This document shows, one piece after another, positions 27,600 to 63,586 of a stretch of 64,000 nt of DNA (the first letter of the stretch is position 1; every line of letters starts with the position of its first letter). The notes under the pieces were generated by a model that saw nothing but the letters and a program-made list of their open reading frames with translations, was not told where the DNA came from and searched no databases. The DNA is from Candidatus Bathyarchaeia archaeon (GTDB lineage: Archaea; Thermoproteota; Bathyarchaeia; Bathyarchaeales; Bathycorpusculaceae), in contig JBEKSS010000010.1 of assembly GCA_049516875.1 (NCBI GenBank), positions 54,371 through 118,370 of the forward strand, given 5' to 3'. Made by a program: the position numbers and the translations under genes.

Positions 27600-27788
27600 T
27601 TGAATCCTCCACCATTATGCCTGCGTCTGCGTACAGATATTTAGAGCTTTTGTCTTTCCCAATTTAATGCTTGCTACTCTCGGGCGCGCGACACTGCAAA
27701 AGACTGCGGGATAGAACCGTTCAGGACGCCATACGGGGCACCGCAAGTTTCTGGAGCTTGGCTGTGCGCACAATGTAGCGCACTGGTT

Positions 27789-27860
27789 TTTCATGTTCCT
27801 TTCTGTGCAATAATTCCTTGGCTGGGTCTCCTAACATGCGTCATTCTGATGCTCTCTTGA
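27789..27860 (+). pseudogene. Possible C-terminal remnant of an APC amino-acid permease
   Basis: FHVPFCAIIPWLGLLTCVILMLS* resembles the F.VP..P.LG..C terminal motif of APC permeases; no upstream body. Confidence 0.3.
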
Positions 27861-27992
27861 AGACTTGAGAATCTTGGATCGCCGCGCGTGCCTTTGACGA
27901 AATCTCTCTATGATGCCCGCGCGCATGACGACTAGCGCGCTTCGTTGCGTTAATATAGCTTATGAGAAAGACATTGAGTGTAAATCTCGGCG

Positions 27993-28826
27993 ATGGTTGA
28001 TCTCATGGAGAAACTGCACGGGGAAAATCGAATTGAAGAATTCAGGAAAATTGCAGAGTTGCTCAAATCAAAGATTGCCTCGTATGAAGGTGTTTCTGGC
28101 ATTGTTTGTGCTGGCGGTTTGATTAGACGTTTTGCTGACAAGTATTCTGATGTGGACATTATTGTCTTGTTAGGCGAGAAGGACAAGGACTTGAGGAAGA
28201 AGGTTCGAAAGATTGGGAAGGAAGAACAGAGACGCTCGGGCGTTGACGTGGATTTGGAAGTTCACTTTCTTGAAGACTTCAGGACCCGGAAATGGGATGA
28301 GATGGCTAGGTGGGATTTTTCGCATTCGGAGATAGTCTTTGATCTTGAAGGAAAGGTGCGGAAGCTGTTCAAGAAGAAGTTGAGAGTTTCCAAGAGTTTT
28401 TGGCTGAAGCGGATTGTCATTTATGGAGAATACCTTAAGTGGTATTGTTTCCCGCCTCAGGATAATGTGGGAACTATCGTTGATGCATGGGTCGATAGAG
28501 GTGACTTGATCTCTGCCCATTACTGTCTGGACTATGCTTTGGGCCTCCTGATCAGGATAATATTCGCCTTGAACAGGGAGTTTCTGCCTCCTCCCAAATG
28601 GGAATTCTTCTACTCTTGCAATTTAAAGTGGCTGCCCTCGAATTACAAGAAACGTATCAGCGAAGCCTTGACCGTTAAGAACCTGTCAAAGAGCGACTTG
28701 GACCGAAGGCTAAGGGCAACTGGAGAACTTTGGCGTGAAGTTCTGCCCAAGATAAGAGAAGAAACAGGTTTGACCCCAGAATTGATGTCAAAACAGTATG
28801 CCAGACACGTGCTTAGGCAATCCTGA
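27993..28826 (+). CDS. Pol-beta-type nucleotidyltransferase with helical C-terminal domain
   Basis: GGLIRRFADKYSDVD motif; FALNREFLPPPKW (DUF4037-like). Confidence 0.8.
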   Translation: MVDLMEKLHGENRIEEFRKIAELLKSKIASYEGVSGIVCAGGLIRRFADKYSDVDIIVLLGEKDKDLRKKVRKIGKEEQRRSGVDVDLEVHFLEDFRTRKWDEMARWDFSHSEIVFDLEGKVRKLFKKKLRVSKSFWLKRIVIYGEYLKWYCFPPQDNVGTIVDAWVDRGDLISAHYCLDYALGLLIRIIFALNREFLPPPKWEFFYSCNLKWLPSNYKKRISEALTVKNLSKSDLDRRLRATGELWREVLPKIREETGLTPELMSKQYARHVLRQS

Positions 28827-28918
28827 TGTCTTGCGAGCGCTGAGAAGATATGTTTACATACTTCCCTCAACAAACAAGAGCATGAATCGAGAGTCAAGAC
28901 AGTGAAGGAGGTTGAAAT

Positions 28919-29098
28919 TTGGCGAAAGATCCGATTTGTGGAATGGAAGTGAATGAGAAGACGGCGAAACACAAGACGGAGTACAAGGGCAAAATCTACT
29001 ACTTCTGCACGCAGATGTGCAAGACAACGTTTGACAAGAGCCCTGCCGAGTACGCCAGTGGCCAAACGCAGCCTTCAGGTCACATGGGGCATTCCTAG
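28919..29098 (+). CDS. YHS-domain metal-binding microprotein (59 aa, below ORF-track cut-off)
   Basis: Hand translation: MAKDPICGMEVNEKTAKHKTEYKGKIYYFCTQMCKTTFDKSPAEY...HMGHS*; GGAGG RBS. Confidence 0.9.
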   Translation: MAKDPICGMEVNEKTAKHKTEYKGKIYYFCTQMCKTTFDKSPAEYASGQTQPSGHMGHS

Positions 29099-29231
29099 AT
29101 TGAAGAGACCCATGCCTTCAGAGCTAGGATGTTTCAACTGTGTTTCCTTTTTTTCAAGTTGATGTTTCAATGTTTTATATCGGCTTGCGCTTTTGAGAAT
29201 TGTTAGACCAGACGCTATTAAGGTGGGAGAC

Positions 29232-30017
29232 GTGAAAATAGGGGCAGGGTATCCGACCGTTGAGCATGAACGAGCTTCAAAGGCCATTGTGAACTTTTTC
29301 TCCAAGGCTCCAGATGTCGAAGCTGTGATACTCACTGGTTCTTGTGCACGTGGGAAAGCCACAAAAGACAGTTGTTTGGACATAATGGTCCTCTTGCCTC
29401 CGAAAGCGTCAATGAGCAAAAGGTCCAAGTTGGAACGTGGGTGGAGCGACTTCTATGAAAATAGTGCTGTTTTTGACAAATTGCGAAGAGTCGGCAGGTA
29501 CTCGCATGTGGATTTGGATTTTGTTGACGGCTGTCTTGTGCCCAAGACGCGCGGCTGGACCTCTGGACCGGATGAGTTTGAGCTGGAAATAGGCAACTTA
29601 CTGGTGTACAGCGTACCACTCTGGGAGCGCGGTGACTGCTTTAGGCGTCTTAAGACCAAGTGGCTACCCTATTATGACGAGAAACTTCGACAAGAAAGAT
29701 TAGCAACTGTACGTCAGTTCTGCCTCAATAACCTTGATCATGTTCCTCTGTATGTGGACAGAGGTCTATATTTTCAAGCCTTCGACCGCTTGTACAATGC
29801 ATTTCAAGAATTCCTTCAGGCTCTATTCATCGCGCGCCGAACCTACCCCATTGCATATGACAAGTGGATCAGAGAACAGATTGAAGAGATACTCGGCATG
29901 CCAGAGCTCTACAGGCAATTGCCCAAACTTTTCGAAATCAAACACTTTGAAAGTCAAGAGATTGCGCTAAAGGCAAGAGAACTAAACCGCCTCTTCGAAA
30001 AGTGTGTCCAAGAATAG
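29232..30017 (+). CDS. Pol-beta-type nucleotidyltransferase with helical C-terminal domain
   Basis: TGSCARGKATKDSCLD; LQALFIARRTYPIAYDKW; GTG start after GGTGGGAG. Confidence 0.8.
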   Translation: MKIGAGYPTVEHERASKAIVNFFSKAPDVEAVILTGSCARGKATKDSCLDIMVLLPPKASMSKRSKLERGWSDFYENSAVFDKLRRVGRYSHVDLDFVDGCLVPKTRGWTSGPDEFELEIGNLLVYSVPLWERGDCFRRLKTKWLPYYDEKLRQERLATVRQFCLNNLDHVPLYVDRGLYFQAFDRLYNAFQEFLQALFIARRTYPIAYDKWIREQIEEILGMPELYRQLPKLFEIKHFESQEIALKARELNRLFEKCVQE

Positions 30018-30369: not shown

Positions 30370-30897
30370 CTAAGCAGTTTTTGTCAGTATCTTTGGTTCT
30401 TTCCATTCTTCTCTGAGAATACTGTACATATGAGCAATCGTCCATTTTCCCCTTATGAACGAGTATTTTCTCAAAGTTCCCTCTCTCAGGAAACCAACTT
30501 TCTCCACAACCTTCTGGGATGACTTGTTCTCAATGTTTATTATTGCTTGGATGCGAACTATGTCTTTAGACAGAAACAGAAAATCTACAAGGATTTGTGC
30601 CGCCTCAGTGCAGTATCCTTTTCTTCTCTCGCTTGGAATCAAGAAAGTGCCCAAAGTTGGCACCCTATCAATAAGGAAATGAGAAATGAGTCCAATCTTG
30701 CTTCCATCCTTCTTTTCGATAACAAAAGTCTGCTGTTCTGGATGGGCTTCGCCGTAACGTTTCTCCAACTCTGACCTTGAAATTTGCGTAAATCCTTCAT
30801 GTTCACCCAAAACATCTGGAGTATTCAGCCATTCCACAACCAGCGGCAAGTCCTCTTTCTCATCAGCCCTCAAATTCACATTTTTACCTTCAAGCAA
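30370..30897 (-). CDS. RimJ/RimL-type GNAT acetyltransferase
   Basis: LEGKNVNLR, RRKGYCTEA, N.SSQKVVEKVGF.REG.LR, YSILREEW; start TTG 30897. Confidence 0.88.
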   Translation of the reverse strand: MLEGKNVNLRADEKEDLPLVVEWLNTPDVLGEHEGFTQISRSELEKRYGEAHPEQQTFVIEKKDGSKIGLISHFLIDRVPTLGTFLIPSERRKGYCTEAAQILVDFLFLSKDIVRIQAIINIENKSSQKVVEKVGFLREGTLRKYSFIRGKWTIAHMYSILREEWKEPKILTKTA

Positions 30898-30964
30898 ATA
30901 CCTGCACCAGTCCAAAATGATTGAGTTGGTTCGGCTACAACTTTTCCGCAAAATCGAAACTGGC

Positions 30965-31960
30965 TTAATCCAATAGATAATATGGTAATTCTTGAAAAGA
31001 AACAGACCATTCTTTTCTGCAGGCAATTAGTGCGCACAGGAGCGTAAGAATGAACATTGAAGGGATAAGGATCGATGGAAATTCTGGAATAGCCTGTGGG
31101 CTGTTTTGAAAAGTCATCGATGTGCCGTCCGTTGACGCTATTATTGTTCCTGACTTGAAAGTGCCGTATATTGTTACTCCATGAGCTAGGAGCCTTTGCA
31201 CTGTCTCCGGGTGGGGGTGTCCGTAAGGATTGTCTTTTCCTGCGCTTATGATTCCATACGTTGGCTTGACCCTGTCTAGATATTCATCTGTCGTAGCGTA
31301 ACGGCTTCCATGATGCCCGACTTTCAAGACATTGCTCTTCAGGTCCAGTCCACAGTTGAGCATGCTCTGCTCGGCATTTGCCTCTGCATCGCCTTCCAGC
31401 AAGAAGCTTGTCTCACCCACCTGTAGCCTCATCACGATACTGTTTTCATTTTGATCAGTGAATTCGATTGGTTGAACTGGATTCAGTATAGTGAGGCTTG
31501 CTGTTGCAGTAAGATTGTAGACTTGCCCTCGCTGAGCCGCGAGAACTGTGTGACTTTTGGCGAGGTTCATGAAGTTCGTGTACACGAGCGTGCTGTCGGG
31601 TTGATTGTTGACCAGTATTTCGTCCACCTGAACAGTCGAACTCAAAATAGTGATTAGCCCGCCAATGTGGTCTTCGTGCATGTGGGTTGCCACCATCAGA
31701 CCAATACGTGTAATGTTTAAGCCGCTCACGTAGTTTAGCACTGTTGCTCCTGCCGCTTCTGTTCCACCGTCTATCAGTACGTCCACGCCCGATGTGTCAA
31801 TCAAAATCGAGTCGCCCTGCCCCACATCGATGAAGTGCACTGTGACGTTTGTATAAGTCGCCGCAAATGTGAAGCCGTCTGTTCTCATGTTTGATAATAT
31901 CAACATTGATACAAGAAGTATAGTGGACAGAGACAACTGAAAAACGCACTTTTTTCCCAT
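30965..31960 (-). CDS. Secreted ComEC/Rec2-type metallo-beta-lactamase-fold hydrolase with PEF-CTERM-like anchor
   Basis: Signal peptide; FIDVGQGDS, THMHEDHIGG, GDAE, KVGHHGS, NPYGHP; IPEFP + TM helix + RK. Confidence 0.88.
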   Translation of the reverse strand: MGKKCVFQLSLSTILLVSMLILSNMRTDGFTFAATYTNVTVHFIDVGQGDSILIDTSGVDVLIDGGTEAAGATVLNYVSGLNITRIGLMVATHMHEDHIGGLITILSSTVQVDEILVNNQPDSTLVYTNFMNLAKSHTVLAAQRGQVYNLTATASLTILNPVQPIEFTDQNENSIVMRLQVGETSFLLEGDAEANAEQSMLNCGLDLKSNVLKVGHHGSRYATTDEYLDRVKPTYGIISAGKDNPYGHPHPETVQRLLAHGVTIYGTFKSGTIIASTDGTSMTFQNSPQAIPEFPSILIPSMFILTLLCALIACRKEWSVSFQELPYYLLD

Positions 31961-32018: not shown

Positions 32019-34172
32019 CTACGGTTTCCATCTTCTCAGGAGCATGGAGTTTCCGACGACTGTGAGGTCGCTGAGTATCATCGAGGTTGCCGCAGCTTCG
32101 GGTGGGATTAGAATGTGAAGTGGCAAATAGAGCAGGCCTGCGGCCAAGGGAATCATTATGACGTTGTAGAAGAAGGCCCAGAACAGGTTTTGTTTGATTT
32201 TGCTCAGCGTTTTCTTGCTGAGGTCGATGCTGGTGGCCACATCTCTTGGGTCATCTTTGATTAAGACTATGTCTCCTGCTTCGATTGCTACGTCGGTTCC
32301 GCTTCCGATGGCTATGCCCACGTTGGCTTGCGTTATTGCTGGTGCATCGTTTATTCCGTCTCCGACCATGGCGACGAATCGGCCTTGGCTTTGCAGCTTC
32401 TTTATCTCTTCAACCTTCTGGGCTGGAACCACTTCGGCCAAGACTTCGGTTATGCCTAGCTGTCCGGCAATCGCCTCTGCCGTTCTTTTGGTATCACCGC
32501 TGAGCATTACAACTTTCAAGCCCATCTTATGGAGTGTTTCAACTGCCTCTTTCGAATGCTCCTTAAGCGTGTCAGAAACAGCTAACAACCCCACAGCATT
32601 ACTGGCTACGGCCACTACAAGCACCGTTTTGCCTTCGCCTTCCAATCTCTGAACATCGCTTTCAAAGCGTTCGATCGGAATTCCGTTGTTCTTCATCAAG
32701 GCGCGGTTCCCTATCAGAACCTTCTTGCCTTCAACCTCAGCTACTACGCCGAAGCCTGGTAAAGCTTCAAAAGACTCCGGTTCGCCGAAACTGATTTTTT
32801 CAGCTTCAGCCTTTTTGACTATGGCCTGACCTATTGGGTGTTCAGACCATTTTTCCGCGGCGCCTGCAACCTGCAGGATGAAGTTCTTGTCTCCTGCAAC
32901 GATGTCGGTGACTTCCAGTTTGCCCCTAGTCAACGTACCGGTCTTGTCAAAAACCACCGTGTCCAGATTTCTAACAACCTCCAAGATGGCGTTATTCTTG
33001 ATGAGAATTCCGTTTTCAGCACCGTTGCCTACTCCAATCATGATGGCCGCTGGAGTTGCTATCCCCAGAGCACATGGACACGAGATGGCGAGGACGGAAA
33101 CCATGGTTGTCAAAGCCAGCGCGTCGTCTACGACGAAATGCCATATGAGAAAAACGGCTACTGCAATTGAGACAACGACTGGGACGAATATGTTGACAAC
33201 CTTGTCTGCGATTCTTTGGATTGGCGCTTTGCTCGCCTGGACTTCTCTTGCCAGTCTGACTATTTGAGCCAAAGTGGTTTCGAGTCCCACCTTTTCTGCC
33301 GTGAACTTCAAGGTGCCGGTTTTGTTTATCGTACCGCTGAAAACCGTGTCTCCCAAAACTTTTTCAACTGGAACTGACTCGCCGGTGATCATCGACTCAT
33401 CTATAAACGTGCGACCTTCAAAAACTGCCCCGTCAACAGGAATTCTTTCGCCGGGTTTTACGATGACTGTGTCGCCAACCTGAACTTCGTCGACTGGAAT
33501 TTCCTTTTCTTCGCTGTCACGGACAACGAATGCTGTTTTGGGTTGAAGAGCCATGAGCTTCTTTATCGTCTCACCCGTCCGTTCGACAGCCATGTCTTCC
33601 AACAACATGCCCAACGTTATTGTCGTGATAACGACGGCTGAAGCATCAAAGAACACCATGCCCTGCAGGATGAAGATCGAATAAACAGAGTAGACATATG
33701 CTGCCGTAGCGCTTAGAGCTACCAGCACGTTCATGTCGGCAAACCTGTTTCTGATCGAAGAGTACGCGCCTCGATAGAAGTGCCAGCCCACGACAAACTG
33801 AACTGGGGTCGCCAAAGCCAGCAGAACGTAGCTCTTTCCTGGAAAATCAAGAAGATAAGAAATTAGCACGATGGGAATTGTCAGGGCGAGGCCCAGCAAG
33901 AAAAGCAGCATCCTGTTCCTGACATGTTTTCGGCGTTTTTCAGTCGTGTCCTCAACCTGCTCAACAGCTTCGTACCCGCCTCTCTTTATCACCGCCTTGA
34001 TCTTGTCCAAGCCTATCTTGTCTTCATCAAACCTGACAATGGCTTCTTTTGAAGCGAAATTCACCTTTGCCTCTATGACACCGTCCATTCTGGCTAAGCC
34101 TGTCTGAATTCCTTCCGAACAGGATGGACAACTCATGCCCAGGATTTGGAGAACGACTTCTCTTTCTTTCAT
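32019..34172 (-). CDS. copA: P1B-type heavy-metal (Cu+) ATPase
   Basis: GMSCPSC HMA, TGES, CPCAL, DKTGT, SEHP, GDGINDAP, YN. Confidence 0.93.
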   Translation of the reverse strand: MKEREVVLQILGMSCPSCSEGIQTGLARMDGVIEAKVNFASKEAIVRFDEDKIGLDKIKAVIKRGGYEAVEQVEDTTEKRRKHVRNRMLLFLLGLALTIPIVLISYLLDFPGKSYVLLALATPVQFVVGWHFYRGAYSSIRNRFADMNVLVALSATAAYVYSVYSIFILQGMVFFDASAVVITTITLGMLLEDMAVERTGETIKKLMALQPKTAFVVRDSEEKEIPVDEVQVGDTVIVKPGERIPVDGAVFEGRTFIDESMITGESVPVEKVLGDTVFSGTINKTGTLKFTAEKVGLETTLAQIVRLAREVQASKAPIQRIADKVVNIFVPVVVSIAVAVFLIWHFVVDDALALTTMVSVLAISCPCALGIATPAAIMIGVGNGAENGILIKNNAILEVVRNLDTVVFDKTGTLTRGKLEVTDIVAGDKNFILQVAGAAEKWSEHPIGQAIVKKAEAEKISFGEPESFEALPGFGVVAEVEGKKVLIGNRALMKNNGIPIERFESDVQRLEGEGKTVLVVAVASNAVGLLAVSDTLKEHSKEAVETLHKMGLKVVMLSGDTKRTAEAIAGQLGITEVLAEVVPAQKVEEIKKLQSQGRFVAMVGDGINDAPAITQANVGIAIGSGTDVAIEAGDIVLIKDDPRDVATSIDLSKKTLSKIKQNLFWAFFYNVIMIPLAAGLLYLPLHILIPPEAAATSMILSDLTVVGNSMLLRRWKP

Positions 34173-34208
34173 CTCACGTCAACCTTAACGCTCCAGATTC
34201 ATTCGAGC

Positions 34209-34853
34209 TCAAATAGTGGCCTTCAACACTTGCTCCAGAAACATGTCCTCTGGAACCGCTCCCACGAATTCGATTTTTTCGTTGACCACTATTTTTGGGA
34301 CGCCCATGACGCCATACTTTATGGCCATATCTGAAAATTCGTTAGCATCGATCACTTCGGCAGTTATGAGGCTGTTTTCTATGGCAAACTTGTGAGCCAT
34401 GGTTGCAGCCGTTGGGCAGTGTGGGCACGTCAGGGTCGTGAAAACCTTTATATTGATTGGAATTTTGATTTCTCGCAGCTTCTGCTTTGTTTGTTCTGAA
34501 AGGTTAGTTTGGCCTCTGGAAACTGAAGCCAACGCCTCCATCAATGTTTGGAACTCGTAGCCGTATGGGAACCCGTAGAACCTTATTCCATAATCTTTTT
34601 CGCTTCTGATGACGATTGCTGGAATCTTGTCAACGCCGTACTGTTGAGCCAGTTGAGTGTCAGCCACAAAATCATGAACTTCAGCTTGAATCTTCTCGTT
34701 TAATTCTGCCAGTTCATAAATCAGTTGTTTGGTGTCCGCGCAGAACTTGCATTCCATCACCTGTGTGAACATTATGACTCTCACTGGACCAACCAGTTTT
34801 TCCACAAGTTCACTTCTGATACGCTCTCTCTGTTCGTCAGGTATCAAACTCAT
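34209..34853 (-). CDS. Protein disulfide oxidoreductase (two thioredoxin folds)
   Basis: CKFC and CPHC, G.P.GYEF, GVP. Confidence 0.9.
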   Translation of the reverse strand: MSLIPDEQRERIRSELVEKLVGPVRVIMFTQVMECKFCADTKQLIYELAELNEKIQAEVHDFVADTQLAQQYGVDKIPAIVIRSEKDYGIRFYGFPYGYEFQTLMEALASVSRGQTNLSEQTKQKLREIKIPINIKVFTTLTCPHCPTAATMAHKFAIENSLITAEVIDANEFSDMAIKYGVMGVPKIVVNEKIEFVGAVPEDMFLEQVLKATI

Positions 34854-35287
34854 CTTTCATTCACTTCATAACTGGTCTTTTCAGCTTTTCCTGAAGCAAT
34901 GCGGGACAGATTCCTTTCACTCCTTCCATAGATTCAATTCTCTCCGATAATATTAGCCTTGTCAGTCCCCGTCCGTCATGCGTCCATGTTTCAGTCATCA
35001 CCACACGCTCTCCGCCTAAAGTGGCAACACATCTTGCCTAGTCTAATTCACAGAGTCTCTGAGCCGCTTCAAGCAGGTTCGGGGGGTCGAACTCCGCTCC
35101 AACGTTGCGAAGAAATATAAGACAGTACCAAAATGAAAGGATTTTGTCCAAGAATGAGAAAAAAGGTGTCAAGAATGGAAACAAAAACTGGCCTATCCAA
35201 TGCAAATATCGCACGCTGTGCAGAGAGAGACTCTCATGGAAATTCCCCCTTTTCCTTGACCAAATGGCTTGCGGGAGGTGATAGGTT

Positions 35288-35707
35288 TTGACGAAGTTGA
35301 ATGCAACCGCAAGGCTGGTCAAGAATTACAGGATAGATGTTGACGACGGCAGGGCTCACGCAATATGTCTTGATCTTGAACAGGACGATGGAGGAACTGA
35401 CATGGGACCTTCAGCTCTTGAACTAGCATTGATGAGCTTTGCGGGATGCTATGCAGCAATATTCATGCTCACAGCAAACAAGATGCGGAAGACCATAAAG
35501 GACTTGGAGGTAAAGGCGGAAGCAGTCAAGTCCGAAGAGGCAGGAACCATAATAGAAACAAAATTTGACATTACAATAAAAGCAGACATGCCAGAAGACA
35601 GAGTACACAGACTACATGAATTAACAGTAAAAGGCTGCCCAGTTGGAAAAATCTTTGAAAAGGCCGGAGTCAAAATAAAGTACAACATCAAAATAGAAAA
35701 GCAGTAG
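35288..35707 (+). CDS. OsmC/Ohr-like family protein
   Basis: GG.D.GPSALE...AGC ... CPV. Confidence 0.85.
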   Translation: MTKLNATARLVKNYRIDVDDGRAHAICLDLEQDDGGTDMGPSALELALMSFAGCYAAIFMLTANKMRKTIKDLEVKAEAVKSEEAGTIIETKFDITIKADMPEDRVHRLHELTVKGCPVGKIFEKAGVKIKYNIKIEKQ

Positions 35708-36032
35708 CGCGATATTTTCTTTTTGGAACATCTCTTGCTTGAGTTCTTGGTAGCGGCGACAATGAAAACAGACGAATTACGATTAGTGGCGAAAGGCAAA
35801 TTGGAGCGCGCGCGCTAGTTGCTGTAGCGTGCTCTGCAGTAATTCACGAAATCAGGAGCGAACAATACTAGAAAACAGATTGCCCCAAAGATTTCATCTC
35901 TGCTTGAGCAAGAATGACGAAGCCTGCGAAAGTTTCTCCTTAAGCCCTAATAAATGGGCGAAAGACTCTTAACAGTCCTTCAAGATTTGTCTGTGCTTAT
36001 GCCCTGTATTGCGGTCTGCGTAGTATGGAGAT

Positions 36033-37316: not shown

Positions 37317-37477
37317 TCACTACTATACACACTACCGCAAACATAAGTGTCGAAGACAGTTTGTTACAATCGCCCCAGTAGTTCACGCGATTAGCGTAGA
37401 GTTGTTCTTTTACCGTCGCGATAGTCAATGCTGCAAAACCCTTCGTGGAACTAGAATTCTCTACAGCCGAGCGTCGC

Positions 37478-37532
37478 AAGCGAGCCATGAAAAGGCTTTT
37501 CAGAGACTTGTTGGTAACTCTCTAGTGGTTTG
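37478..37532 (+). promoter_or_regulatory. Conserved upstream element, copy 1, with TGAAAAG-N-CTTTTCA palindrome
   Basis: Aligns with 42125-42179 and 56849-56902 (minus). Confidence 0.75.
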
Positions 37533-37536
37533 TAGG

Positions 37537-40842: not shown

Positions 40843-40893
40843 CCAAGCAAGGATGTTTTGCCAAATCCTTTGTGCGTGCATGAATAGCGCGCG

Positions 40894-41049
40894 CGAACAC
40901 TTCTTGAGAAAGCCCAGAGCTATTGTCGAGAAAAAGGTTATTCAAGAATTCTGCTCATAGTATCTGTGAATAATGCGAATGCCATAGGACTATACAACAA
41001 GATGAGTTTCAGAGTAGAACAGATGTACATGGGAAAAGTACTAAGCTGA
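40894..41049 (+). pseudogene. C-terminal fragment of a GNAT acetyltransferase
   Basis: RTLLEKAQSYCREKGYSRILLIVSVNNANAIGLYNKMSF...*; no start; 5' break inside TAGCGCGCGCG. Confidence 0.75.
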
Positions 41050-41235
41050 AAGCACATCAATGAACAGCATAACTCTGCTGACATTTTTCTATGTGTCAAA
41101 GTTGCTGTCTGTTAGACTTGAGCTTCTTTTCTATCTGATATTCTTTTCATGATGCAGTCTTTAATACTAATTCACCTAATCTTATCTTTTGGGTGTCAAT
41201 GGTGGTTGACATACAGACTGTTTCTGGCGCGCGTG

Positions 41236-42003: not shown

Positions 42004-42124
42004 AAGTAGCGCGAGCTCAAATCTAGTGGCGATATTTCCCGCAGCGCGCTACAGAATCAATTGACTATGACATAACTTTTATGTGTTCATTGTGAACTAG
42101 TGAAGCGCGCGCTAAGGGTGGGGC

Positions 42125-42179: not shown

Positions 42180-42184
42180 CCGGT

Positions 42185-45493: not shown

Positions 45494-45603
45494 CCTAACA
45501 ACGCAGTTTTGTCCAATCCTTTATGCGCGCATAAACACTTGACAACGCCCGCAAGTTTAGCAGTCATAAGAAGCGGTGCGCGAAGGAGGACCAAGCATTG
45601 AGG

Positions 45604-50482: not shown

Positions 50483-50505
50483 TTCATTTCACTTCCTGAT
50501 AATCC

Positions 50506-50815: not shown

Positions 50816-51068
<253 letters not shown>

Positions 51069-51132
51069 TCACCCAAGCTAGAGTAAAAACCTGGAAATAT
51101 TAACTCTTCTGTCTCTCCAAGATGCTTCAACC

Positions 51133-52346: not shown

Positions 52347-52651
52347 AACGCCCGAAGACTCTTCAGGTCTATTCGTATACACTTGACTACAGACCTGACA
52401 TGTCCAACAGCTCGGTTAGCGCGCGCAGAAAAAATCATTTAACAACTGAAATCTTTCAAAACGTAGTTGTCTAAGGAGTGGTCAGTTGGCGTGGGGGCGT
52501 AGGATTTGATGCTATGGGGCCATTGCTCATGCTGCGTGTCAGAAACTGCTATGATGTCCTGCAATATGCCAGTTACGCGTTTGATTCTTGTCTTCAGGTC
52601 GAAGGGCAACTGTTATTATCGCACGTTGATGAATACGTACTACTGGTAAGA

Positions 52652-53450: not shown

Positions 53451-53555
53451 ACGCGCGTGCAGGCCGAGTTCGTCTGTAGTGGACGGGTGGGACTTGCACT
53501 CCGCGAGGCCAAATCCTACAATTATCGTATCAAGTCTCAAAACAGGCTTACGCGT

Positions 53556-56500: not shown

Positions 56501-56843
56501 GTGTGGAATCTTCTTCGGACCAAGAATCAGAGTAACTAGCCATAGCCCTGCAATACAAGCCTCTCGCCGAGCTAGTCTTTTCCAATAGTTCCGCAGCCCG
56601 TTGGTAAGACTGAGCCGATAGCTGCATACGCTTTTCAAACTCTTCTGCCGTCTCTGCCTGAAAAGCAGCTCTGAAGAAAATGTGACCAATCCTCTCGTGC
56701 AGCTCGCCCCTCTTCAAGTAGTCCAGCTCTGAAAACAATTCTGAAGCCTTACCGTAGGAGTCAGCAGCTCCTAACCAATCATAATCCTCTTCCTGTTTCG
56801 CTGCACGACTGAGAATTGATTCTGCATCCGACGACTCCGACAT
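53556..56843 (-). CDS. Large TPR/alpha-solenoid protein with C-terminal Ig-like beta domain, paralogue 3
   Basis: Collinear with paralogues 1 and 2; same C-terminus. Confidence 0.88.
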   Translation of the reverse strand: MSESSDAESILSRAAKQEEDYDWLGAADSYGKASELFSELDYLKRGELHERIGHIFFRAAFQAETAEEFEKRMQLSAQSYQRAAELLEKTSSARGLYCRAMASYSDSWSEEDSTQKKKLLDECSKLLKEVLEVSEGTGDYLGYWKAFHGLSFCLMDKDVLEGDWHERKRIAEEVIGYGQNIITKFSNDLSPSELAWTYALVSYFMVFWLDLFEERRTEFVSLISSYLGKASKLVEKTGDAYLLFFVYMTLGGNSFLVTGDWQGVSKYVEEVIQQSKKSKDRFLAETAYAVKSTMISWEATTEEDPDRLKEKYKLAIRFDEQCIPLDLTIHRYDRVANSHQSLVENCIRLAELETGHEKKHAFLEQAVKVGLKGSEYARLSGSAGSIVGISHSLSKAELFLSEIEGDINEKKRLLEEALHLREITIRISDQLIRPGEWDCGVYQNYLALIYADLAEIEENVGRKRHLLEEAVQRMEKCIGICTAWLQKDVARLPRNYAVLGWYYDWFGRILGQLYSLSKDERVTRKAVEVHEGAAHVYIKAGMPSRVAEAYWKAAKLLDQRGEHAKAAEHFELASKNYELVAEKIPQFKDLFQDYRLYMQAWSEIEKARNHHGKQEYGSAKDHFEKAANIHRSLKHWSYLAPNYFAWAQVENGEELSRNEESEEAITLFQQAARLFNESRELLQTQLANIENPEEKLMASGMIKATDTREKYCMARVAVEEARILDKKGDHYSSSEEYGSAAESFEKISQTLDTEQERREFKLIIGLSRAWQKMTYAEAGASPESYAEASRIFEETKESSPNEKTKMLVLGHSRFCKALEAGTEFVDSRNREMHSEAIKCLESASNYYIRAGFPKASEYCEATKLLLDAYLQMDNAAREDDPEKKARLYAAAEKVLQTSAGSFMKAEHPEKREQVLGLLEKTRKERELALSITEVLHAPTIVSATSSFTTPTPTREEAVGSERFEHADIQANLIVHQKELRVGENLDMEIELVNAGKGPALLIKVTGVVSKDFEVAEKPEIYRVEDSFINMKGKRLDPLKTEEIRLILRPKVQGVFPLKPTILYLDENGKYKSHEAEPVTVTVKELGIKGWLKGER

Positions 56844-56959: not shown

Positions 56960-57250
56960 CTAGAAAGACACGACTTTTTGACTTTCGATTATCCACTTGG
57001 AAAGCCCCGTTATCGTGCCCATTTCCGTTCCTTTGACCAGGTCCTGCTCCCTCAACCCTCTCAGGTTCATACTCGTGTGACAAACATTGATGCACACGCC
57101 CGCCTTGACAAGGTCCTCCAGCATTCTTTCAATGTTGTAGAAACCCTTCGCCGGCTTCTATCCCTTCTTGGCTGCGTCACAGCGTCTCCAATCAGGAAAA
57201 TGTTCACTCTTATGCCCTGACCGGAGCTTGACAACGCCTCAGCCAACCTG
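56960..57250 (-). pseudogene. Decayed 5'-truncated duplicate of the DsrE gene at 59699-60055
   Basis: Continuous nucleotide similarity (e.g. tctccaatcaggaaaatgttcact identical); 1-nt deletion near 57178, CAG>TAG near 57159, N-terminus missing. Confidence 0.88.
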
Positions 57251-57370
57251 GCGTGCGCCAGTTTAAAAAATCTGAAGGAAAATGAACTTATGCGAACGAT
57301 TGGGCGCATAACAAGGCCTCATCCCCGAACCCAAAAAAACTTTCAAAAAAAGCAGCAACTCAAGCGTGCT

Positions 57371-59194
57371 CTACAATTCTTTCAAGACTCGCTCATTGTT
57401 CCTCTGTTTTTCCAGCGTTGATAGTGGATGTTCTGGAATAGCCATGAAGATTTCGGGATCTCCTTGTTTGGTTCTTGGATCGGTTGGGATTGTAACGGTG
57501 AATGTGGAGCCTTTTCCTACGGAGCTTTCCGCCGAGATTGTGCCTCCATGCGCTTCTACTATGCGCTTGCAGATTGTCAGCCCGAGGCCCATTCCCTTAG
57601 CCTTGGTTGTGAAAAGGGGTGACCAAAGTTTTGTCATGACCTCGCTGGGCATTCCGACTCCCGTGTCAGAGAAACTGATCGCAACACCTTCTTTCACTTT
57701 TGTGCTCTCCACTTTGAGCATTCCGCCGTTGGGCATCGCGTCAAACGCGTTTTCTACTAGTTTGGCGAAGGCGACTTTCATTTTTTCTTGATCACATTTG
57801 ATCCTTTGTGTTTCTCGAGTCTTGTCCAATATTCTAACGTTGTTTGGAACCTTCACATGGGACAAGACTTCACTCAGGATATATCTTGGTTCGGTTTCGG
57901 ATATGTCAAGCTTCATCTCCTCTGCGTATTTCAAGAGGTCAGTTATGATTTTATCCGAGTGAGCGATTGCCCCCTCAATGGTTGAGACCATTTCCTTTGC
58001 TCGGGTATCCATTTTTGCTTCCAACTTTGTTTTCAAGTAGTATGTGGCCCCAGCGATTCCTGTCAGGGGATTTCGCAAATCGTGTCCAACCATCGCTGCC
58101 AACTGACCGATGGCTGCAAGATGCTCTGCTTTTCGCAATCTTGCAGTTTTATCCTCGATATCAGTCAACATTTCGTTTATCGACTTCCCTAGGCCTGATA
58201 ATTCGTCATTTCCATCGGTTGGCACACGTGTTTTGAGATCTCTGTTTCTTCCTATGCTCCGCACGGCCCTAGTAAGCTTGACTACTCGATACAAAACTGT
58301 TCTTTCCATAAGTAACATGATGGCTGCTACAAACATCACCGTCAGACCAAGGAGCGACAAGAGGAAGTAGTTGATTGTACTTAGTCCTTGTTTGTAAATG
58401 TCTCTGGGCATGTCAATCCTTGACACGAGGATTGGATTTCCATAAACATCCTTTATCAAAGCATATCCAGCAACATCATCTGCGTTCAAGGGTTGGACGA
58501 AGACTGTTTCGTTATTCGAAAATGACAAAAGAGCGTTTTGAAAATCTGGAAGCACAGGCGAATCATTGTAACGCTGCAAGGTGATAGACAAGTCCGTCAT
58601 TCGAGCCAATTGTCCGATTTCATCAGAGTCAAGGTAGCGTGCCATAATCAGTGCTCCATGAACAGGACCTTCACCCTGACTTGTCAAAATGGGCCTCGAG
58701 CAAATCAGCAACGGATTCTCTGGCAGAAGAATGATCCCGTTTGTACTACTGTCGGTTGTGAGGTTACGCCAAAGAACGTCATGAGAAGAGAGTTCATTTT
58801 CTATGGTCTCTGGAACTGGCACTTCCGTCATGTTATGCAAGTCGTAGGCCCTGCCGCATACAATCTGACCCGAGAGGTTCACAAACAGCAGAATGTTGAT
58901 CTTCAAAGCAGTGAAAGCTGTATCCCCGAGGTTTGAGTTAATGTAGTTTGCGTTCGGCGCAACAATGAATGCATACGTGTCGTCCCATACTGCCCAATCA
59001 CCCGATTTGCTGTGCAAGTCAGAGACATCATCGGCTAGGGCGCTTTGAAATCTACCGACGTTTTGGTGAACATTGGTTATTTCTAGTTCTTTAAAGCTAT
59101 TCAGCAATAGAGATTGAGAAAAGAAGTACACTGTTACCATCATGCTGATGGCTAAGATGCCAATCATGGTCAATGTTCTCTTCCGCATTCCCAT
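57371..59194 (-). CDS. Membrane sensor histidine kinase (CHASE4-HAMP-HisKA-HATPase)
   Basis: DWAVWDDTY CHASE4 motif, two TMs, DELSGL HAMP, HDLRNPL, DTGVGM, GMGLGL. Confidence 0.92.
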   Translation of the reverse strand: MGMRKRTLTMIGILAISMMVTVYFFSQSLLLNSFKELEITNVHQNVGRFQSALADDVSDLHSKSGDWAVWDDTYAFIVAPNANYINSNLGDTAFTALKINILLFVNLSGQIVCGRAYDLHNMTEVPVPETIENELSSHDVLWRNLTTDSSTNGIILLPENPLLICSRPILTSQGEGPVHGALIMARYLDSDEIGQLARMTDLSITLQRYNDSPVLPDFQNALLSFSNNETVFVQPLNADDVAGYALIKDVYGNPILVSRIDMPRDIYKQGLSTINYFLLSLLGLTVMFVAAIMLLMERTVLYRVVKLTRAVRSIGRNRDLKTRVPTDGNDELSGLGKSINEMLTDIEDKTARLRKAEHLAAIGQLAAMVGHDLRNPLTGIAGATYYLKTKLEAKMDTRAKEMVSTIEGAIAHSDKIITDLLKYAEEMKLDISETEPRYILSEVLSHVKVPNNVRILDKTRETQRIKCDQEKMKVAFAKLVENAFDAMPNGGMLKVESTKVKEGVAISFSDTGVGMPSEVMTKLWSPLFTTKAKGMGLGLTICKRIVEAHGGTISAESSVGKGSTFTVTIPTDPRTKQGDPEIFMAIPEHPLSTLEKQRNNERVLKEL

Positions 59195-59698
59195 TGTCTC
59201 GCCTGCTGTCTACTTGATTCATGTACTCTGCACCAGGCGTACTCGAGAGTAAGCCCAATTCACAGGGAGTCTAACTACAGGGACCATAGATAAGTCGTTT
59301 ATGAACGAACGCTACTTAGTGGCACACTGTGCGAGACAGAAGCAGAATCTGAACAAGAACAAAATCAAGTTTGGGAATAAAACCTCAACCCGAAACGTTC
59401 TTGCGATTCAAACACAGCTTTCCACAGAGTATCAATATTCTTCCTGTCTTCACAAGCCCAAAATGCAAGCAAAGCGCCACCTCCGCAAAACCAATACCCG
59501 CATAGTGTAACACAGAGTGTAAATCTTGGCACTATACCGTATGCTAACAAAGAAGGAAATCGAACCCATTATGAGGTTAAAGGTAGCGTTGCAGACCCAT
59601 GATTCAAAGCATGAAAGACAATATCGTAGAGTACGCTAATACTTGACGTTTCATTCAAACCCAGACGTTCCAAAGCGCGCGACGAATGTCAAGGACTC

Positions 59699-60055
59699 TT
59701 AGAAAGATAGAACTTTTTGGCTTACTTCTATCCACTTGGAAAGCCCTGTTATCGTGCCCATCCTTGTTCCTTCGACCAAGTCTTGCTCTGTTAATCCTCT
59801 CAGGTTCATACTCGTGTGGCAAACACTGACGCACACGCCTACCCTGACAAGGTCTGCAAGCATTTTTTCTATGTTATAGAAGCCTTTAGCAGGTTTCTGT
59901 CCCTTCTTGGCTGCGTTTACAGCATCTCCAATCAGGAAAATGTTCACTTTCATCTTTACACTGGAACAACATAATGCTTCTGCCAATCTCAAAGCATTCC
60001 AGATTCTCTCATCTCCATAAGGAGAACTGCTAATAACCATCGTTAAGGTCTCCAT
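59699..60055 (-). CDS. DsrE/YchN family protein
   Basis: PYGDER.WNALRLA, IFLIGDAV..AKKGQ, VCHTS..RGL. Confidence 0.88.
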   Translation of the reverse strand: METLTMVISSSPYGDERIWNALRLAEALCCSSVKMKVNIFLIGDAVNAAKKGQKPAKGFYNIEKMLADLVRVGVCVSVCHTSMNLRGLTEQDLVEGTRMGTITGLSKWIEVSQKVLSF

Positions 60056-60555
60056 GCACTCAGCTTCCCAATCATCCCTAAATCATTCCTAACTCATGCG
60101 CAATGCTTAAACATGTTGTCTTCCATCGATGAATCTTAAGATAAACGCTATTCTACTGCATTAAAATAAATGTGGAATAATATAACACCAAAGACTTTCT
60201 TGGGTTGGGGTTGTGTGAAAGGGAGGTTTTATCCCAAACCCAAAAAATGACTGAACGAATGCGATAGAGCAGCGCGCGCCAGTCAAGTTAAGTGAAAACA
60301 AGCCTCTGCATTCGCCAATACTTAGCCCAATAATGTCATTTAAGTTTTCTGAAACGAAGTTTAGGCCGTTGAAAGAGCTTCAAGAATAGAAAAAGAGGGA
60401 GTTTGCGGGAGATGTCGCCACTGGTCTAGGGTTCAACTCCACCCCGGCTTCAGGGCATAAACTTGCCTAGTTTTAGAAGAAAATTCTAGCCCTCTTGCAA
60501 AAAACAGAAAAAGAGGGAGAAAGCTAGAAAAGTGCGCGCTAATTACACGTGTCCA

Positions 60556-62025
60556 TTAATCCAAAGGTACACTTCTGTATACATTCCATTTTTCTTCACG
60601 TATCTTTCCCATGTCAAGTAGACGGTCTATAGATTCCATGAGTTTGAATGTGTCTTGATTGAAGAAATGCTCTTCTATCAAGTGGTAGTCAACACCTACT
60701 TCTTTTGTCTCGTTATCTGTTATGAATCTGAGAATCTGCTTATCTAATTCATTTTTCAAGGTTGCTATTTCAATTCCTTTAGAAGTGAAGAGATTGGGCC
60801 ATTCCTCGTAGAGTATCTTGAAATTCTCCAGATAGTAGTCGTTGAATGCTTTCATTGCAGAGGTGTTGTCGACCTCAGTACGAGATGATGCTCTTGCCCC
60901 CGCCAAGGCAAGTCGCAAAATGGACTGGGGTTTTCCGTACGAGTTTGGGTCAAAAATGCCATGTCTTCGGACCTCTGGTGTAAGGTCATAACTCTTGGCT
61001 ACTTCAACGATTCTAGAGCTTGCCTCGTTTAGAATTTTCATGGAATCTTGTTCCGTCTTGCCGACCGTTGGATAGAGCATTTGTGTAGTTGTAAGATATT
61101 TCGTCACATCGAGTGGTGGATCGGCGTTTATTTTTCGCATTTCTGCACTTGACAATAGTAATGTCGGTTGATCAACCATTCCAATTAGGGGGTCATAAAG
61201 TGTTGGAGGCGCGTTTTTATCACTACCTAAGCCTATGGAAATCTCGGAAAACTTATCAGATTTACGGTATTGAAGAAGCTTTTTCATAGACTCATCAAGT
61301 GGCTTATCAGCATCAGCTGACTTGAACGCCCACGAATAGGGTGGGAGACTTGTGCGTATCTGCATTTCTGGCACATAGAGCGAGCAAGATTTCCCGCGTC
61401 CTAGCGCTGTTGGGATTATATTGCCAAGATTCTGGAGCAATTTCTTGCTGAGTCTCGATTCCGTTCCGTCGTACAAAGAGACATTGAGCCCGCCGACTTG
61501 ACCCAGGGCGAAAAGAGGCGGGGAGCTCACCATTTCAAACGCTAGTAACTCTCTGAGCGGCGAGTTTATCCCTGCCCATTGTATTAGGAGCAAGTCTTGA
61601 AAGTCCTTGAAATCTATCTCAGGTTTTAGGGGCATTTTCATTTTCGCGGGTGATATGCTTTCTACAAATATTTCATAGCGATTCCCAAAACAGCGTCTTC
61701 TACCAGACACTTTTACATACGACCAGTTTGCTGGCGCTGGAAGTCCTGAAGGACAGACGCAAAGGACGTAATCTTGAGTTAGGTATGGTGCAGGAATGAG
61801 TATGAATTGTCCTCTTCCCAACTTTCGGTCCGCAACGACAGTTCCAAAGATAACAGTTTGAACGGCTCTTTTCGCCTGCGCAAAGTCCCGCAAGAGTTGC
61901 ATTTCCCATCGATTGAACTCACTGCCAAATTCTCGTTCCCAAAAACGAGGCTTGATAGGCTTGAATTTTTGAGGACTTGGGGTGAAAGTCATGAATTGAA
62001 CGCTCAATGTAATAATATTGCCCAC
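60556..62025 (-). CDS. Highly divergent MCM-like protein, probably ATPase-dead
   Basis: OB-fold-like N-term; GGLNVSLYDG at Walker A position; SILRLALAGARAS..EVD..A lid motif; C-terminal winged helix IDRLLDMGKIRE..VYRSV. Confidence 0.65.
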   Translation of the reverse strand: MGNIITLSVQFMTFTPSPQKFKPIKPRFWEREFGSEFNRWEMQLLRDFAQAKRAVQTVIFGTVVADRKLGRGQFILIPAPYLTQDYVLCVCPSGLPAPANWSYVKVSGRRRCFGNRYEIFVESISPAKMKMPLKPEIDFKDFQDLLLIQWAGINSPLRELLAFEMVSSPPLFALGQVGGLNVSLYDGTESRLSKKLLQNLGNIIPTALGRGKSCSLYVPEMQIRTSLPPYSWAFKSADADKPLDESMKKLLQYRKSDKFSEISIGLGSDKNAPPTLYDPLIGMVDQPTLLLSSAEMRKINADPPLDVTKYLTTTQMLYPTVGKTEQDSMKILNEASSRIVEVAKSYDLTPEVRRHGIFDPNSYGKPQSILRLALAGARASSRTEVDNTSAMKAFNDYYLENFKILYEEWPNLFTSKGIEIATLKNELDKQILRFITDNETKEVGVDYHLIEEHFFNQDTFKLMESIDRLLDMGKIREEKWNVYRSVPLD

Positions 62026-62322
62026 AGAGATTTAAGAACTGCAGTCAAAAAAATTTGGCCCGAGCGCGCTATCCGTACTGTGGAAGGGTTGGGAGTAAGC
62101 CCAGGTTTTTTGATGAGCCTGAATGCCGAAACTGTGTTTTAAGGGGCGGTAGCTACTGTTGGAACCAATGCCCATACAATGTTTGGCGGAGAGAACCATT
62201 CTAAATCATAGTGCGCGCTCACAGAAAAAAAGGGAATGTGCAGGAGGCCTCTGTACACTGGCAACATAAGGCTCTTATAAAGGGTATTTAAGCATCCGCT
62301 ACGCTATAAGAAGCGGTGTTTA

Positions 62323-62822
62323 ATGCCGAAGACCAAAGCCATAATACACATTCAAAACGTTGTTGCCACTGCCACTCTCAACCAAAGAGTTGACCTGAAC
62401 GCAGTTGTGAAGAGTTATCCAGGTGTCGAGTATCGACCGGAACAGTTTCCCGGACTAGTATTTAGGCTTAAGAGACCGAAGACAGCCACGCTGATTTTCA
62501 ACTCTGGAAAAATGGTGAACTGAAAAAAGGCGGAATAATCATCATCAGCAAGCCGGACTTGAAGGTCGTGAACATCGTTGCTTCTGCAAGCTTAGGCGGA
62601 AAAATAGATTTGGAAGCAGTTTCCACGCTTGGAAAAACCATGTATGAGCCGGAGCAGTTTCCAGGATTGATCTATAGGATGGACGAGCCTAAGGTGGTCA
62701 TACTGATATTCGCAACCGGGAATCTTGTTTGCACAGGAGCTAAGAAAGAACAGGACGTTTATGACGCGGTGCATAAGCTTCACGAAAGATTGGAGGAACA
62801 AAACCTCATATTCTACGAATAA
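62323..62822 (+). pseudogene. tbp: TATA-binding protein with internal deletion and frameshift
   Basis: Two TBP repeats ([14 protein letters not shown]; NIVAS..YEPEQFPGL); after SGKMV the sequence jumps out of frame to ELKKGGI at 62516/62517. Confidence 0.9.
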
Positions 62823-62896
62823 AAGCTTCATACGTTAATCGCCTAGCGCGCGCTAAGATCCTAAAACCCAAGAAAGGTTCCATGTTGAAGCAAGAG

Positions 62897-63037
62897 TCAC
62901 CCGAACGATCGATCGACTTCAAGGTTTGTTGGCATAAAATGAAGCCTAAATGTTTTTGCAGCCTTCAACTTGGCTTGTTTGTACTCCTTCTCATCTCCAT
63001 AATAAAGCAGATTGGCCGCTTCTCTCGCAACTCTTTT
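62897..63037 (-). pseudogene. N-terminal fragment of a conserved protein (resembles the N-terminus of a nucleotidyltransferase-domain family)
   Basis: KRVAREAANLLYYGDEKEYKQAKLKAAKTFRLHFMPTNLEV then premature stop; family assignment from memory. Confidence 0.55.
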
Positions 63038-63101
63038 TGTGAACTGATAGAATCGACTGTCACGATTTCACCGAAAAACTCGGGGGCTAGGCGTCGGACT
63101 A

Positions 63102-63581
63102 GCGCGCATGCCTGTTCCGAAAATGGCCAAAAATGGTTTTAAATCCGTTTTCGTACAGTTAGATTATGGATTTGTTTGACGAGCGTATTTTGACTGTGCT
63201 CAACGACGGCAAGCCTAGATTTTTCACCCAACTTCTAGACGAGGTGGGTTTCAGTCGCAACACGCTGAAGCTGCACCTCAAGCGCCTAACAGCTCAGAGC
63301 TTGGTGGTGAAGGAAAAAACGGTTTCAAATGGACGAGGAAGACCAAAATACACCTATTACACATCGCCAAGAGCCCGACGGCAAGTCTCCGCTGCCCTCT
63401 CAGACCCGGCAATAACGATTGTGACCCTACCGTTCAGCCGCCTAAAATACCTCTGCAGGTTCGAGAAAGGCGGATACTGCAAACAAGCCAGAAACAAGTG
63501 TGACCCAGGAAACTGCCCACAAATCCCAAGAAGCAAAGAATAAAAGCCAATTTTGGCCAATTTAGGAACACACATGCGCGC
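63102..63581. mobile_element. 480-bp putative non-autonomous element bounded by ~41-bp terminal inverted repeats
   Basis: 63102-63141 versus reverse complement of 63541-63581: 35 of 41 positions identical by hand alignment; both start GCGCGCATG. Confidence 0.7.
63166..63543 (+). CDS. Winged-HTH protein with Cys-rich C-terminal tail
   Basis: FTQLLDEVGFSRNTLKLHLKRL..LV..GRGRPKYTY; CRFEKGGYC..C...C. Confidence 0.88.
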   Translation: MDLFDERILTVLNDGKPRFFTQLLDEVGFSRNTLKLHLKRLTAQSLVVKEKTVSNGRGRPKYTYYTSPRARRQVSAALSDPAITIVTLPFSRLKYLCRFEKGGYCKQARNKCDPGNCPQIPRSKE

Positions 63582-63586
63582 CAAGC

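Follow-up and report, generated by a model that had tools for sequence, protein, structure and literature searches.

We analysed a 64,000-nt stretch of a Candidatus Bathyarchaeia genome (G000:C10:54371-118370, hereafter the window), in which the 8-mer TAGCGCGC and its reverse complement GCGCGCTA recur between genes. We found that this 8-mer is a one-sided reading of a short palindromic (GC)3-5 tract that prefers A or TA at its flank. An excess of such tracts is confined to one Bathyarchaeia genus among 21 genomes, and their only demonstrable role is to form the outermost 6-7 bases of the terminal inverted repeats (TIRs) of genus-specific IS5/IS1182-like insertion sequences (IS) and miniature inverted-repeat transposable elements (MITEs). 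The solitary tracts, which make up more than 90% of the total, may be by-products of mobile-DNA and recombination activity, not host signals or ends of gene cassettes; we give this reading about an even chance.

The source genome, G000, is a 97%-complete metagenome-assembled genome (MAG) of 2.43 Mb in 20 contigs with 47% G+C. The ribonucleotide-reductase loci closest to that of the window were all in Bathyarchaeia MAGs. It was compared with four congeners (G001-G004), and the taxonomic comparison covered 21 genomes, five of the window's genus and 16 from other genera of the same family and order. Metagenome data were contigs from four independent peat and wetland runs. A tract was defined as a maximal alternating G/C run of at least 6 nt. 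Genes were called crudely, as the longest open reading frames (ORFs) of at least 70 aa by greedy choice (2,605 ORFs, 85% coding), and these calls underlie all coding and intergenic figures.

Within the window, TAGCGCGC occurs 11 times, on the plus strand at 27933, 40885, 52417, 62844 and 63100 and on the minus strand at 35810, 42044, 42107, 60534, 62064 and 62848. A dinucleotide shuffle gave an expectation of 0.91 copies with a maximum of 4, and none of 100 shuffles reached 11; GCGCGC was observed 30 times against 13.4 expected. The 11 positions and strands listed in a first-pass annotation of this DNA were all exact, and every one of its nine further GCGCGC/CGCGCG runs was present. It had also correctly placed no 8-mer in the first 27 kb, where only three 6-nt runs exist (6360, 17076 and 24947), each within a long ORF. 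That all sites are intergenic holds approximately: the 63100 site lies inside an 86-aa ORF with no Pfam match, and the 41227 tract lies inside the longest short-chain dehydrogenase/reductase (SDR) ORF, within its first 27 codons and upstream of the Pfam domain start. The motif is not peculiar to the accessory region, as had been supposed, since its density in the window (0.17/kb) is about that of the whole genome (0.15/kb, 367 copies in 2.43 Mb).

When the 367 copies were aligned, the sequence outside the 8-mer showed only a tendency to go on as GC and then G or T, and across these sites no information content was detected more than 3 nt past the 8-mer. The genome contains 1,123 tracts, among them 345 (GC)3, 212 (GC)4 and 204 7-mers; only five exceed 10 nt. 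The GC phase is favoured over the CG phase (212 (GC)4 versus 28 (CG)4). Of all sides, 57% have an A in front of the run and 25% have TA, the latter at about four times expectation. TA stands on both sides in 36 of ~606 (GC)n tracts, exactly as independence at 25% per side predicts; therefore the two orientations of the 8-mer, which the first-pass annotation called L and R, merely record which side carries TA.

The tracts are strongly intergenic, roughly 10 times denser there than in coding DNA. Density of the 8-mer was 0.67/kb in intergenic versus 0.058/kb in coding DNA, and that of GCGCGC 2.33/kb versus 0.27/kb, while five other G+C-rich 6-bp palindromes had no comparable intergenic bias. Over a first-order Markov expectation, intergenic GCGCGC was enriched 13.4 times, CGCGCG 11 times, (GC)4 86 times and TAGCGCGC 33 times; the other ten dinucleotide repeats reached only 1.2-2.6 times. 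Under maximal-order Markov models for k = 4-6, GCGC, GCGCG and GCGCGC were the top over-represented intergenic words. The genome-wide count against a Markov background thus bore out the intergenic enrichment anticipated earlier. When the 60 nt flanking each tract were clustered, a single sizeable family (47 ends) and a few pairs emerged; 1,050 of 1,121 tracts have unique flanks. An extended motif or a MITE behind every site was rejected, because nothing is conserved past the tract in the 367 sites and only one sizeable flank family exists.

All five congeneric genomes carry the excess, with 123-432 copies of TAGCGCGC against 32-64 for reversed-pattern controls; in the 16 other genera the counts were 0-31 against 1-23. 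Huang and Mrazek (2014, PMC4060949) find the alternating G-C patterns GC6 and GC8 generally suppressed in prokaryotic genomes, so the tract excess of this genus is unusual. Among literature titles and abstract openings we found nothing on GCGCGC tracts or MITEs in Bathyarchaeia, and the accessible portion of PMC12306157 contained no mention of 'Bathyarchae', 'GCGC' or 'RAYT'.

A search with the sequence adjoining the 63100 tract revealed 42 related ends in G000, mostly inverted pairs 160-200 bp apart, which correspond to about 20 MITE copies. The ends all start GCGCGC ATGC.TGTTCC.AAAATGG, and TA precedes most of them, on both sides; TA is plausible as a target duplication for the MITEs. The end pattern had 46, 54, 34, 6 and 3 matches in the five congeners and none in the 16 other genera. 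In the window, the pair at 63100 and 63576-63581 is 484 bp apart and encloses a gene for a 125-aa winged-helix protein. The last block of the first-pass annotation (63.1-63.6 kb) is therefore indeed an element, a TIR-bounded member of the MITE family. The MITEs of 170-185 bp keep only the last ~35 codons of this gene and are therefore internal-deletion derivatives. The protein has 477 metagenome relatives, mostly of 125 aa. In contigs of the four runs many different flanks join at 63100 and 63581, internal-deletion joints were seen, and the summed depth is 4-5 times higher over 62.0-63.3 kb; G002 and run X5 are without 62849-63572.

The transposase lies outside the window. A 307-aa DDE_Tnp_1 + DUF772 protein is encoded at G000:C7:36829-37749, matching PF01609 with 52.7 bits (cut-off 23) and also PF05598. 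Its nearest NCBIfam models, IS1182 (80.6 bits versus 270) and IS5_4 (65.5 versus 140), fall below their equivalog cut-offs. In four genomes the gene sits in a unit of ~1.1 kb with ends GCGCGCTGGCTTGTCCC and CGCGCGCTGCCTTGTC, 1,102-1,113 bp apart, that align in register with the MITE ends. Orthologous copies, with 86-89% aa identity, occupy four unrelated loci in G000, G001, G003 and G004, and their sequence conservation begins exactly at the tract. At the full-length IS, TA is found at one end in three of four copies and at the other end in none, and no direct repeat flanking the element was seen at the four copies. The earlier proposal of a 'TA target plus GCGCGC termini' is thus right in that GCGCGC tips, often TA-flanked, mark an IS/MITE family; a TA duplication at the full IS was not seen. 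The search it recommended, for a transposase flanked by the same motif, succeeded, and the enzyme proved to be of an ordinary kind, an IS5/IS1182-like DDE transposase, where an undescribed system had been suggested.

Known IS5/IS1182 elements and their MITEs share with this family the DDE_Tnp_1 + DUF772 transposase, the ~1.1-kb unit with terminal inverted repeats, the short non-autonomous internal-deletion copies (160-200 bp), and the copies at unrelated loci with insertion differences between genomes. Several features set this family apart: its transposase reaches none of the NCBIfam equivalog cut-offs, the four full-length copies show no evident target duplication, the longest MITE-type element has a winged-helix gene in place of a transposase, and the ends start with a (GC)3 palindrome that has ~1,000 solitary genome copies. 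Overall this is an ordinary, if divergent, DDE IS with its MITEs; the unusual part is the (GC)3 palindrome, of a usually avoided sequence class, that occurs at its tips and also ~1,000 times alone.

Two longer elements with similar ends were observed. One (G000:C15:16976-17905) carries a CGGC-domain gene; the other (G000:C1:76833-78803) has an HTH_45 winged-helix gene beside one end, plus ORFs without family match. No DDE_3 (IS630/Tc1-type) transposase was found in the genome, TnpB-like proteins gave one partial match, and Pfam on representatives of 10 of the 25 largest multi-copy gene families revealed no transposase.

The tracts concentrate in variable DNA. The synteny and orthology comparison with G003 was based on contig G003:C1 (1.44 of ~2.2 Mb), and 1,317 of 2,155 intergenic regions, classed as 'unknown' there, were excluded from the synteny classes. 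Syntenic spacers had 0.64 tracts per kb, compared with 1.48 for island junctions, 2.24 for island interiors and 2.04 for rearranged spacers. Among spacers of 101-400 bp, 9 of 96 syntenic versus 71 of 226 variable ones hold a tract (P=1.7e-5). The core-against-variable comparison that had been suggested as a check therefore came out with tracts 3-4 times denser in variable DNA.

Tracts also accumulate at breakpoints, 0-20 nt beyond the ends of BLAST blocks. Of these block ends, 66 carry a tract in G000 alone, 37 in G003 alone and 8 in both genomes, and 585 have no tract. A tract lies at -8 to +12 nt of 25 of 281 intergenic homology ends, versus 11.2 +/- 2.9 when tracts were shuffled within their own spacers, and at 21 of 291 within-genome repeat boundaries versus 13.5 +/- 2.1.

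In the window, G003 and G004 are collinear with 305-19999 in one block. Beyond 27.7 kb, conserved anchors (26641-27681, 28845-29135, 32019-35108, which is absent in G004, 35251-35709, 45606-51116 and 59671-60124) alternate with variable pieces. The expectation that synteny breaks fall on the motif was confirmed in part: breaks touch a tract at 27681/27684, 59671/59675, 62845/62846 and 63576, and lack one at 28844, 29135-29152, 32019, 35108/35251 and 51116. At 59671/59675 the tract is kept in G004 and G002 and the left-hand DNA is different in every genome. The module with a TATA-binding protein (TBP) paralogue ends in ...cgccTA plus the tract in the window, in G004:C21 and in G004:C39, each time with a different continuation; in G001 and G004:C32 the ancestral sequence continues without a tract.

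Between strains 96-97% identical the tracts stay in place, and the differences are one extra GC unit at 62064 and a base change each at 60272 and 62846. Where G000 aligns with G003, the tract is conserved in 3 of 16 intergenic and 27 of 116 coding cases. By our own arithmetic this is near the ~26% that would be expected for a 6-mer at 80% identity, so that tracts are not conserved beyond chance. A few tracts are clean insertions of 5-12 nt in otherwise aligned DNA.

If the solitary tracts are by-products, they would be left-over ends, small insertions or scars, or microhomology at rearrangement joints. This would explain their pile-up in variable spacers, their roughly two-fold excess at breakpoints, their variation by one GC unit among strains and their non-conservation among species. 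Several points weigh against it, above all the shortness of the sequence shared with the elements and the failure of a simple excision footprint. The link between solitary tracts and the IS consists of co-occurrence in one genus (n=1 lineage) and 6-8 shared nt; only 71 of 1,121 tracts have a flank in any repeat family, the solitary ones carry no TIR residue beyond the tract, and G000 has a single full transposase copy. Among 32 simple insertions, a tract lies at one end of the insert in 6 and at both ends in 1 (11.3 kb); the remaining 25 have none near the insert ends, and two of these have one on the empty-site side. Just one tract was found in 35 G000 spacers where G003 holds extra DNA, yet the tracts at 59675 and 63576 also occur in the genome without the insert; 'always brought in' and 'always target' thus both fail. 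Since BLAST extension can be halted by a lineage-specific tract as such, the breakpoint enrichment may be overestimated, and the crude gene calls count against the reading too. A simple excision footprint was rejected: TA stands on both sides only as often as expected for independent sides.

The strongest competitor, though we think it rather less probable, is that the tracts are host functional elements, either bound by some abundant chromatin or other DNA-binding protein or serving, in a REP-like role, as structures or boundaries between transcription units, and that the IS and MITE ends borrow them. Their strong and specific over-representation is limited to non-coding DNA, and the palindromic TA(GC)nTA consensus with independent half-site preferences resembles a dimer site. 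Tracts occur in all three intergenic types (1.62/kb in tandem, 1.43/kb in divergent and 2.12/kb in convergent spacers), and within 0-40 nt they are near stop codons more often than starts. Three of four congeners retain the tract at 59675, and the gene 60556-62025 is tract-flanked in two species in non-homologous contexts: in an 86%-identical species its flanking tracts are other ones, in unrelated sequence, and one is a MITE-type end. (This 489-aa ORF, earlier called MCM-like, had no Pfam or NCBIfam match.) However, the conservation of tracts in aligned DNA does not exceed chance, and tracts are scarcest in syntenic core spacers, where regulatory sites should persist. Neither orientation of the TA side is preferred with respect to the neighbouring genes, and distances are flat over 0-40 nt from the upstream stop codon and broad to start codons. 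With no orientation bias and no fixed distances, a promoter element and a classical terminator are ruled out; against a promoter also stands that tracts are densest in convergent spacers. Terminator hairpins of paired tracts were rejected too, only 57 adjacent pairs among 1,103 gaps being 40 nt or less apart, as was use of the motif's TAG as a stop codon (only ~11-12 cases).

Elements of the REP (repetitive extragenic palindromic) type lie near gene ends in either orientation and are sometimes IS insertion sites. REPs and REPINs are described in PMC2817692 and PMC8450116 as extragenic, G+C-rich, lineage-specific palindromes with hundreds to more than 1,000 copies. The tracts are likewise high-copy, extragenic, lineage-specific and G+C-rich palindromic. 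Unlike REPs, their conserved unit is 8-12 nt without a stem-loop (a REP palindrome has about 20-40 nt), adjacent pairs within 40 nt number only 57, and a search for a Y1 (RAYT-type) transposase with PF01797 had no match at E<=0.01 in the 97%-complete genome. With Z-DNA-prone runs the tracts share the sequence class, alternating G-C of 6-10 bp; those runs are generally suppressed in prokaryotes according to PMC4060949, whereas here they are 13-86 times over expectation in intergenic DNA.

A neutral mutational origin, in which biased replication or repair peculiar to the genus would create and lengthen (GC)n microsatellites where selection is weak, independently of transposons, seems to us unlikely. 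Length polymorphism of one GC unit between strains, the clean tract insertions in aligned DNA, conservation not above chance and depletion in coding DNA and constrained core spacers all agree with it. On the other side, the other dinucleotide repeats are barely enriched, by which microsatellite slippage in general was rejected; the GC-phase preference and the ~4-fold TA flank are sequence-specific and not predicted by slippage; lengths stay at 6-10 nt apart from the five longer tracts; and the breakpoint enrichment persists after shuffling within each spacer.

A little less probable still is that the tract is a minimal palindromic recombination site, repeatedly broken and rejoined by an enzyme of the genus, which could be the IS5/IS1182-like transposase or some partner not yet recognised. 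The tract would then persist while the gene-sized DNA next to it is exchanged; at 59675, 62846 and 63576 at least three different sequences do border on the same conserved tract.

The first-pass annotation had proposed that the oriented motifs are paired gene-cassette ends of a dedicated, integron-like site-specific recombination system. This is largely refuted and now very improbable. It had in its favour the synteny breaks on tracts, the 11.3-kb insert bounded by tracts at both ends, a 1.1-kb segment with a truncated tyrosine-recombinase gene between two (GC)4 tracts, and ~10 Phage_integrase (tyrosine recombinase) matches in the genome. The order of sites in the window (L R, L R R, L R R, L R, L) is as had been claimed, but 'each L closed before the next L' arises in ~7% of random orderings. 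Genome-wide, consecutive one-sided sites were LR 56, RL 54, LL 44 and RR 56, so the pairing tested by permutation is at chance (P=0.24). Moreover, most simple inserts lack tracts, over 90% of tracts have no shared flanks, and there is no conserved sequence or hairpin beside the tract. The supposed blocks at 27.9-35.8, 40.9-42.1 and 52.4-60.5 kb are mosaics of anchors and independently variable pieces whose ends are mostly without a tract; since several breaks lack one, these three blocks do not behave as units. No integrase is encoded in the window, which agrees with the earlier statement that it holds no recombinase: Pfam on 20 of the larger ORFs gave none, and the genome-wide integrase and transposase profile matches were all outside. 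Integron attC sites are comparable as short palindromic signals near gene 3' ends in variable DNA, with some homology breaks on the tract, but here there is no extended imperfect inverted repeat, no array in the same orientation, and most indels are unbounded. The REP/RAYT and integron models each fail a tested defining feature. The 1.1-kb segment (G000:C1:185766-186858) has GCGCGCGC on both sides and contains the C-terminal part of the tyrosine-recombinase gene, cut exactly at the left tract; its flanks map ~370 kb apart in G003.

That the tracts are DNA uptake or self-recognition sequences marking the genus's own DNA is hardly credible: a genus-specific, over-represented short motif at ~0.5 per kb in either orientation would suit it, but the tracts are not spread through the core genome, being enriched in variable DNA and lowest in syntenic core spacers and coding DNA, and the window's supposed ComEC (30965-31960) matches a metallo-beta-lactamase domain only, with no competence domain.

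A genus of abundant peat and wetland Bathyarchaeia thus carries ~1,100 normally avoided G-C runs per genome, in spacers and at higher density in the variable genome, and the one transposon family with evident activity there has the same tract at its tips. Should the solitary tracts be scars or joints of that activity, they would be a cheap sequence marker of rearrangement in uncultured archaeal genomes. If an enzyme or host protein uses them, they would be an unusually small recombination or binding signal, and were they minimal sites, archaeal genome shuffling could be site-directed with only 6-10 bp. For annotation, the motif does not delimit cassettes, and the 'accessory region' of the window is a mosaic of independent indels. 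The tracts and the element of the window are collected in Table 1.

Table 1. GC tracts and the MITE-type element in the window (NTase, nucleotidyltransferase)
Feature	Position	Strand	Context
GCGCGCG tract	27684..27690		3 nt past homology break 27681; opens the 1,163-bp G000-only insert 27682-28844 with the first NTase gene
Three-tract cluster (27883, 27918, 27935)	27883..27940		Last is the TAGCGCGC at 27933; upstream of NTase gene 27993-28826, within the G000-only insert
(GC)5 then TA	35806..35817		~100 nt beyond OsmC anchor 35251-35709, where congener homology stops
TA + GCGCGCGCG	40885..40895		43 nt past stop of 1146-aa ORF; in 35710-45605, absent at the locus in G002-G004
GCGCGCG	41227..41233		Close to SDR ORF start
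Two tracts, each then TA (42044-42051, 42105-42114)	42044..42114		Between SDR gene and 1102-aa ORF
GCGCGC	45525..45530		74 nt past ribonucleotide reductase stop; conserved block 45606+ starts there
TA + (GC)4	52417..52426		52 nt upstream of HepT-like gene; within the 8.5-kb segment 51117-59670 missing from G003 and G004
CGCGCG	53452..53457		Directly after MNT-like (Polbeta NTase) gene
GCGCGCG	59675..59681		Right edge of the 8.5-kb variable segment; conserved in G004, CGCGCG in G002, GCCCGCG in G003
(GC)4	60272..60279		One substitution in a close strain
GCGCGC + TA	60534..60541		14 nt past stop of 489-aa ORF (no family match); identical in two close strains
GCGCGC + TA	62064..62071		38 nt upstream of 489-aa ORF start; (GC)4 in two metagenome loci and run X5
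GCGCGC	62213..62218		Upstream edge of multi-copy TBP-paralogue module 62219-62853
TAGCGCGCGCTA palindrome	62844..62855		Downstream edge of TBP-paralogue module
TIR-bounded element	63100..63583	+	Ends TA GCGCGC ATGCCTGTTCCGAAAATGG... (63100) and an inverted copy ending GCGCGC at 63576-63581; long form of the MITE family
125-aa winged-helix gene, Cys-rich C-terminus	63166..63543	+	Weak HTH_20 and Lrs14-like matches; carried by the 63100-63583 element

The window contains no Rfam family at gathering score. No tRNA genes were found in it, and therefore no tRNA-type attachment sites.

G000 has five paralogues of TATA-binding protein, in the window (62219-62853) and on contigs C1, C7, C14 and C16. 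The TBP module is multi-copy in all congeners, with 85-96% nucleotide identity, and in G001 and G004 a copy lies ~0.5 kb or less from the IS. At 62517 an otherwise 100% identical metagenome contig (L196) has 57 extra nt, and G002 has ~61. As these are missing in the window, the TBP-paralogue frame is broken there (87-aa ORF at 62559-62822), which may be an assembly artefact or a pseudogene. Metagenome joints at 57428->59173 and several around 62516-62633 have short sides or involve multi-copy DNA.

A metagenome locus of 92-96% identity (L197) lacks the CHASE4 histidine-kinase segment (57209-59699), whose depth in run X5 is low. Direct repeats of ~250 bp, 83.5% alike, flank the segment at 56961-57208 and about 59700-59948, and they suggest a loss by homologous recombination not related to the tracts. 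At 50961/50962 the window is without 62 nt that are present in G002, G003, G004 and contigs of runs X3, X4 and X5; the gap, in conserved and apparently coding DNA, would be either a frameshifting deletion in the MAG or an assembly error.

Two gene families of the variable part are multi-copy. The GNAT acetyltransferase gene at 30370-31026 belongs to a five-member family in G000 and has many paralogous matches in the four congeners, several of them clustered on G002:C7. The ORFs 37402-40842, 42185-45493 and 53556-56843, of ~1,100 aa, belong to a six-member paralogue family and all lie in the variable part of the window; they gave only weak C-terminal TRAP_beta/BatD-like matches, plus TPR in one. 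Finally, contigs C18 (59% G+C) and C19 (39% G+C) of G000, ~5 kb each, deviate from the 46-49% found elsewhere in the MAG and may be mis-binned.

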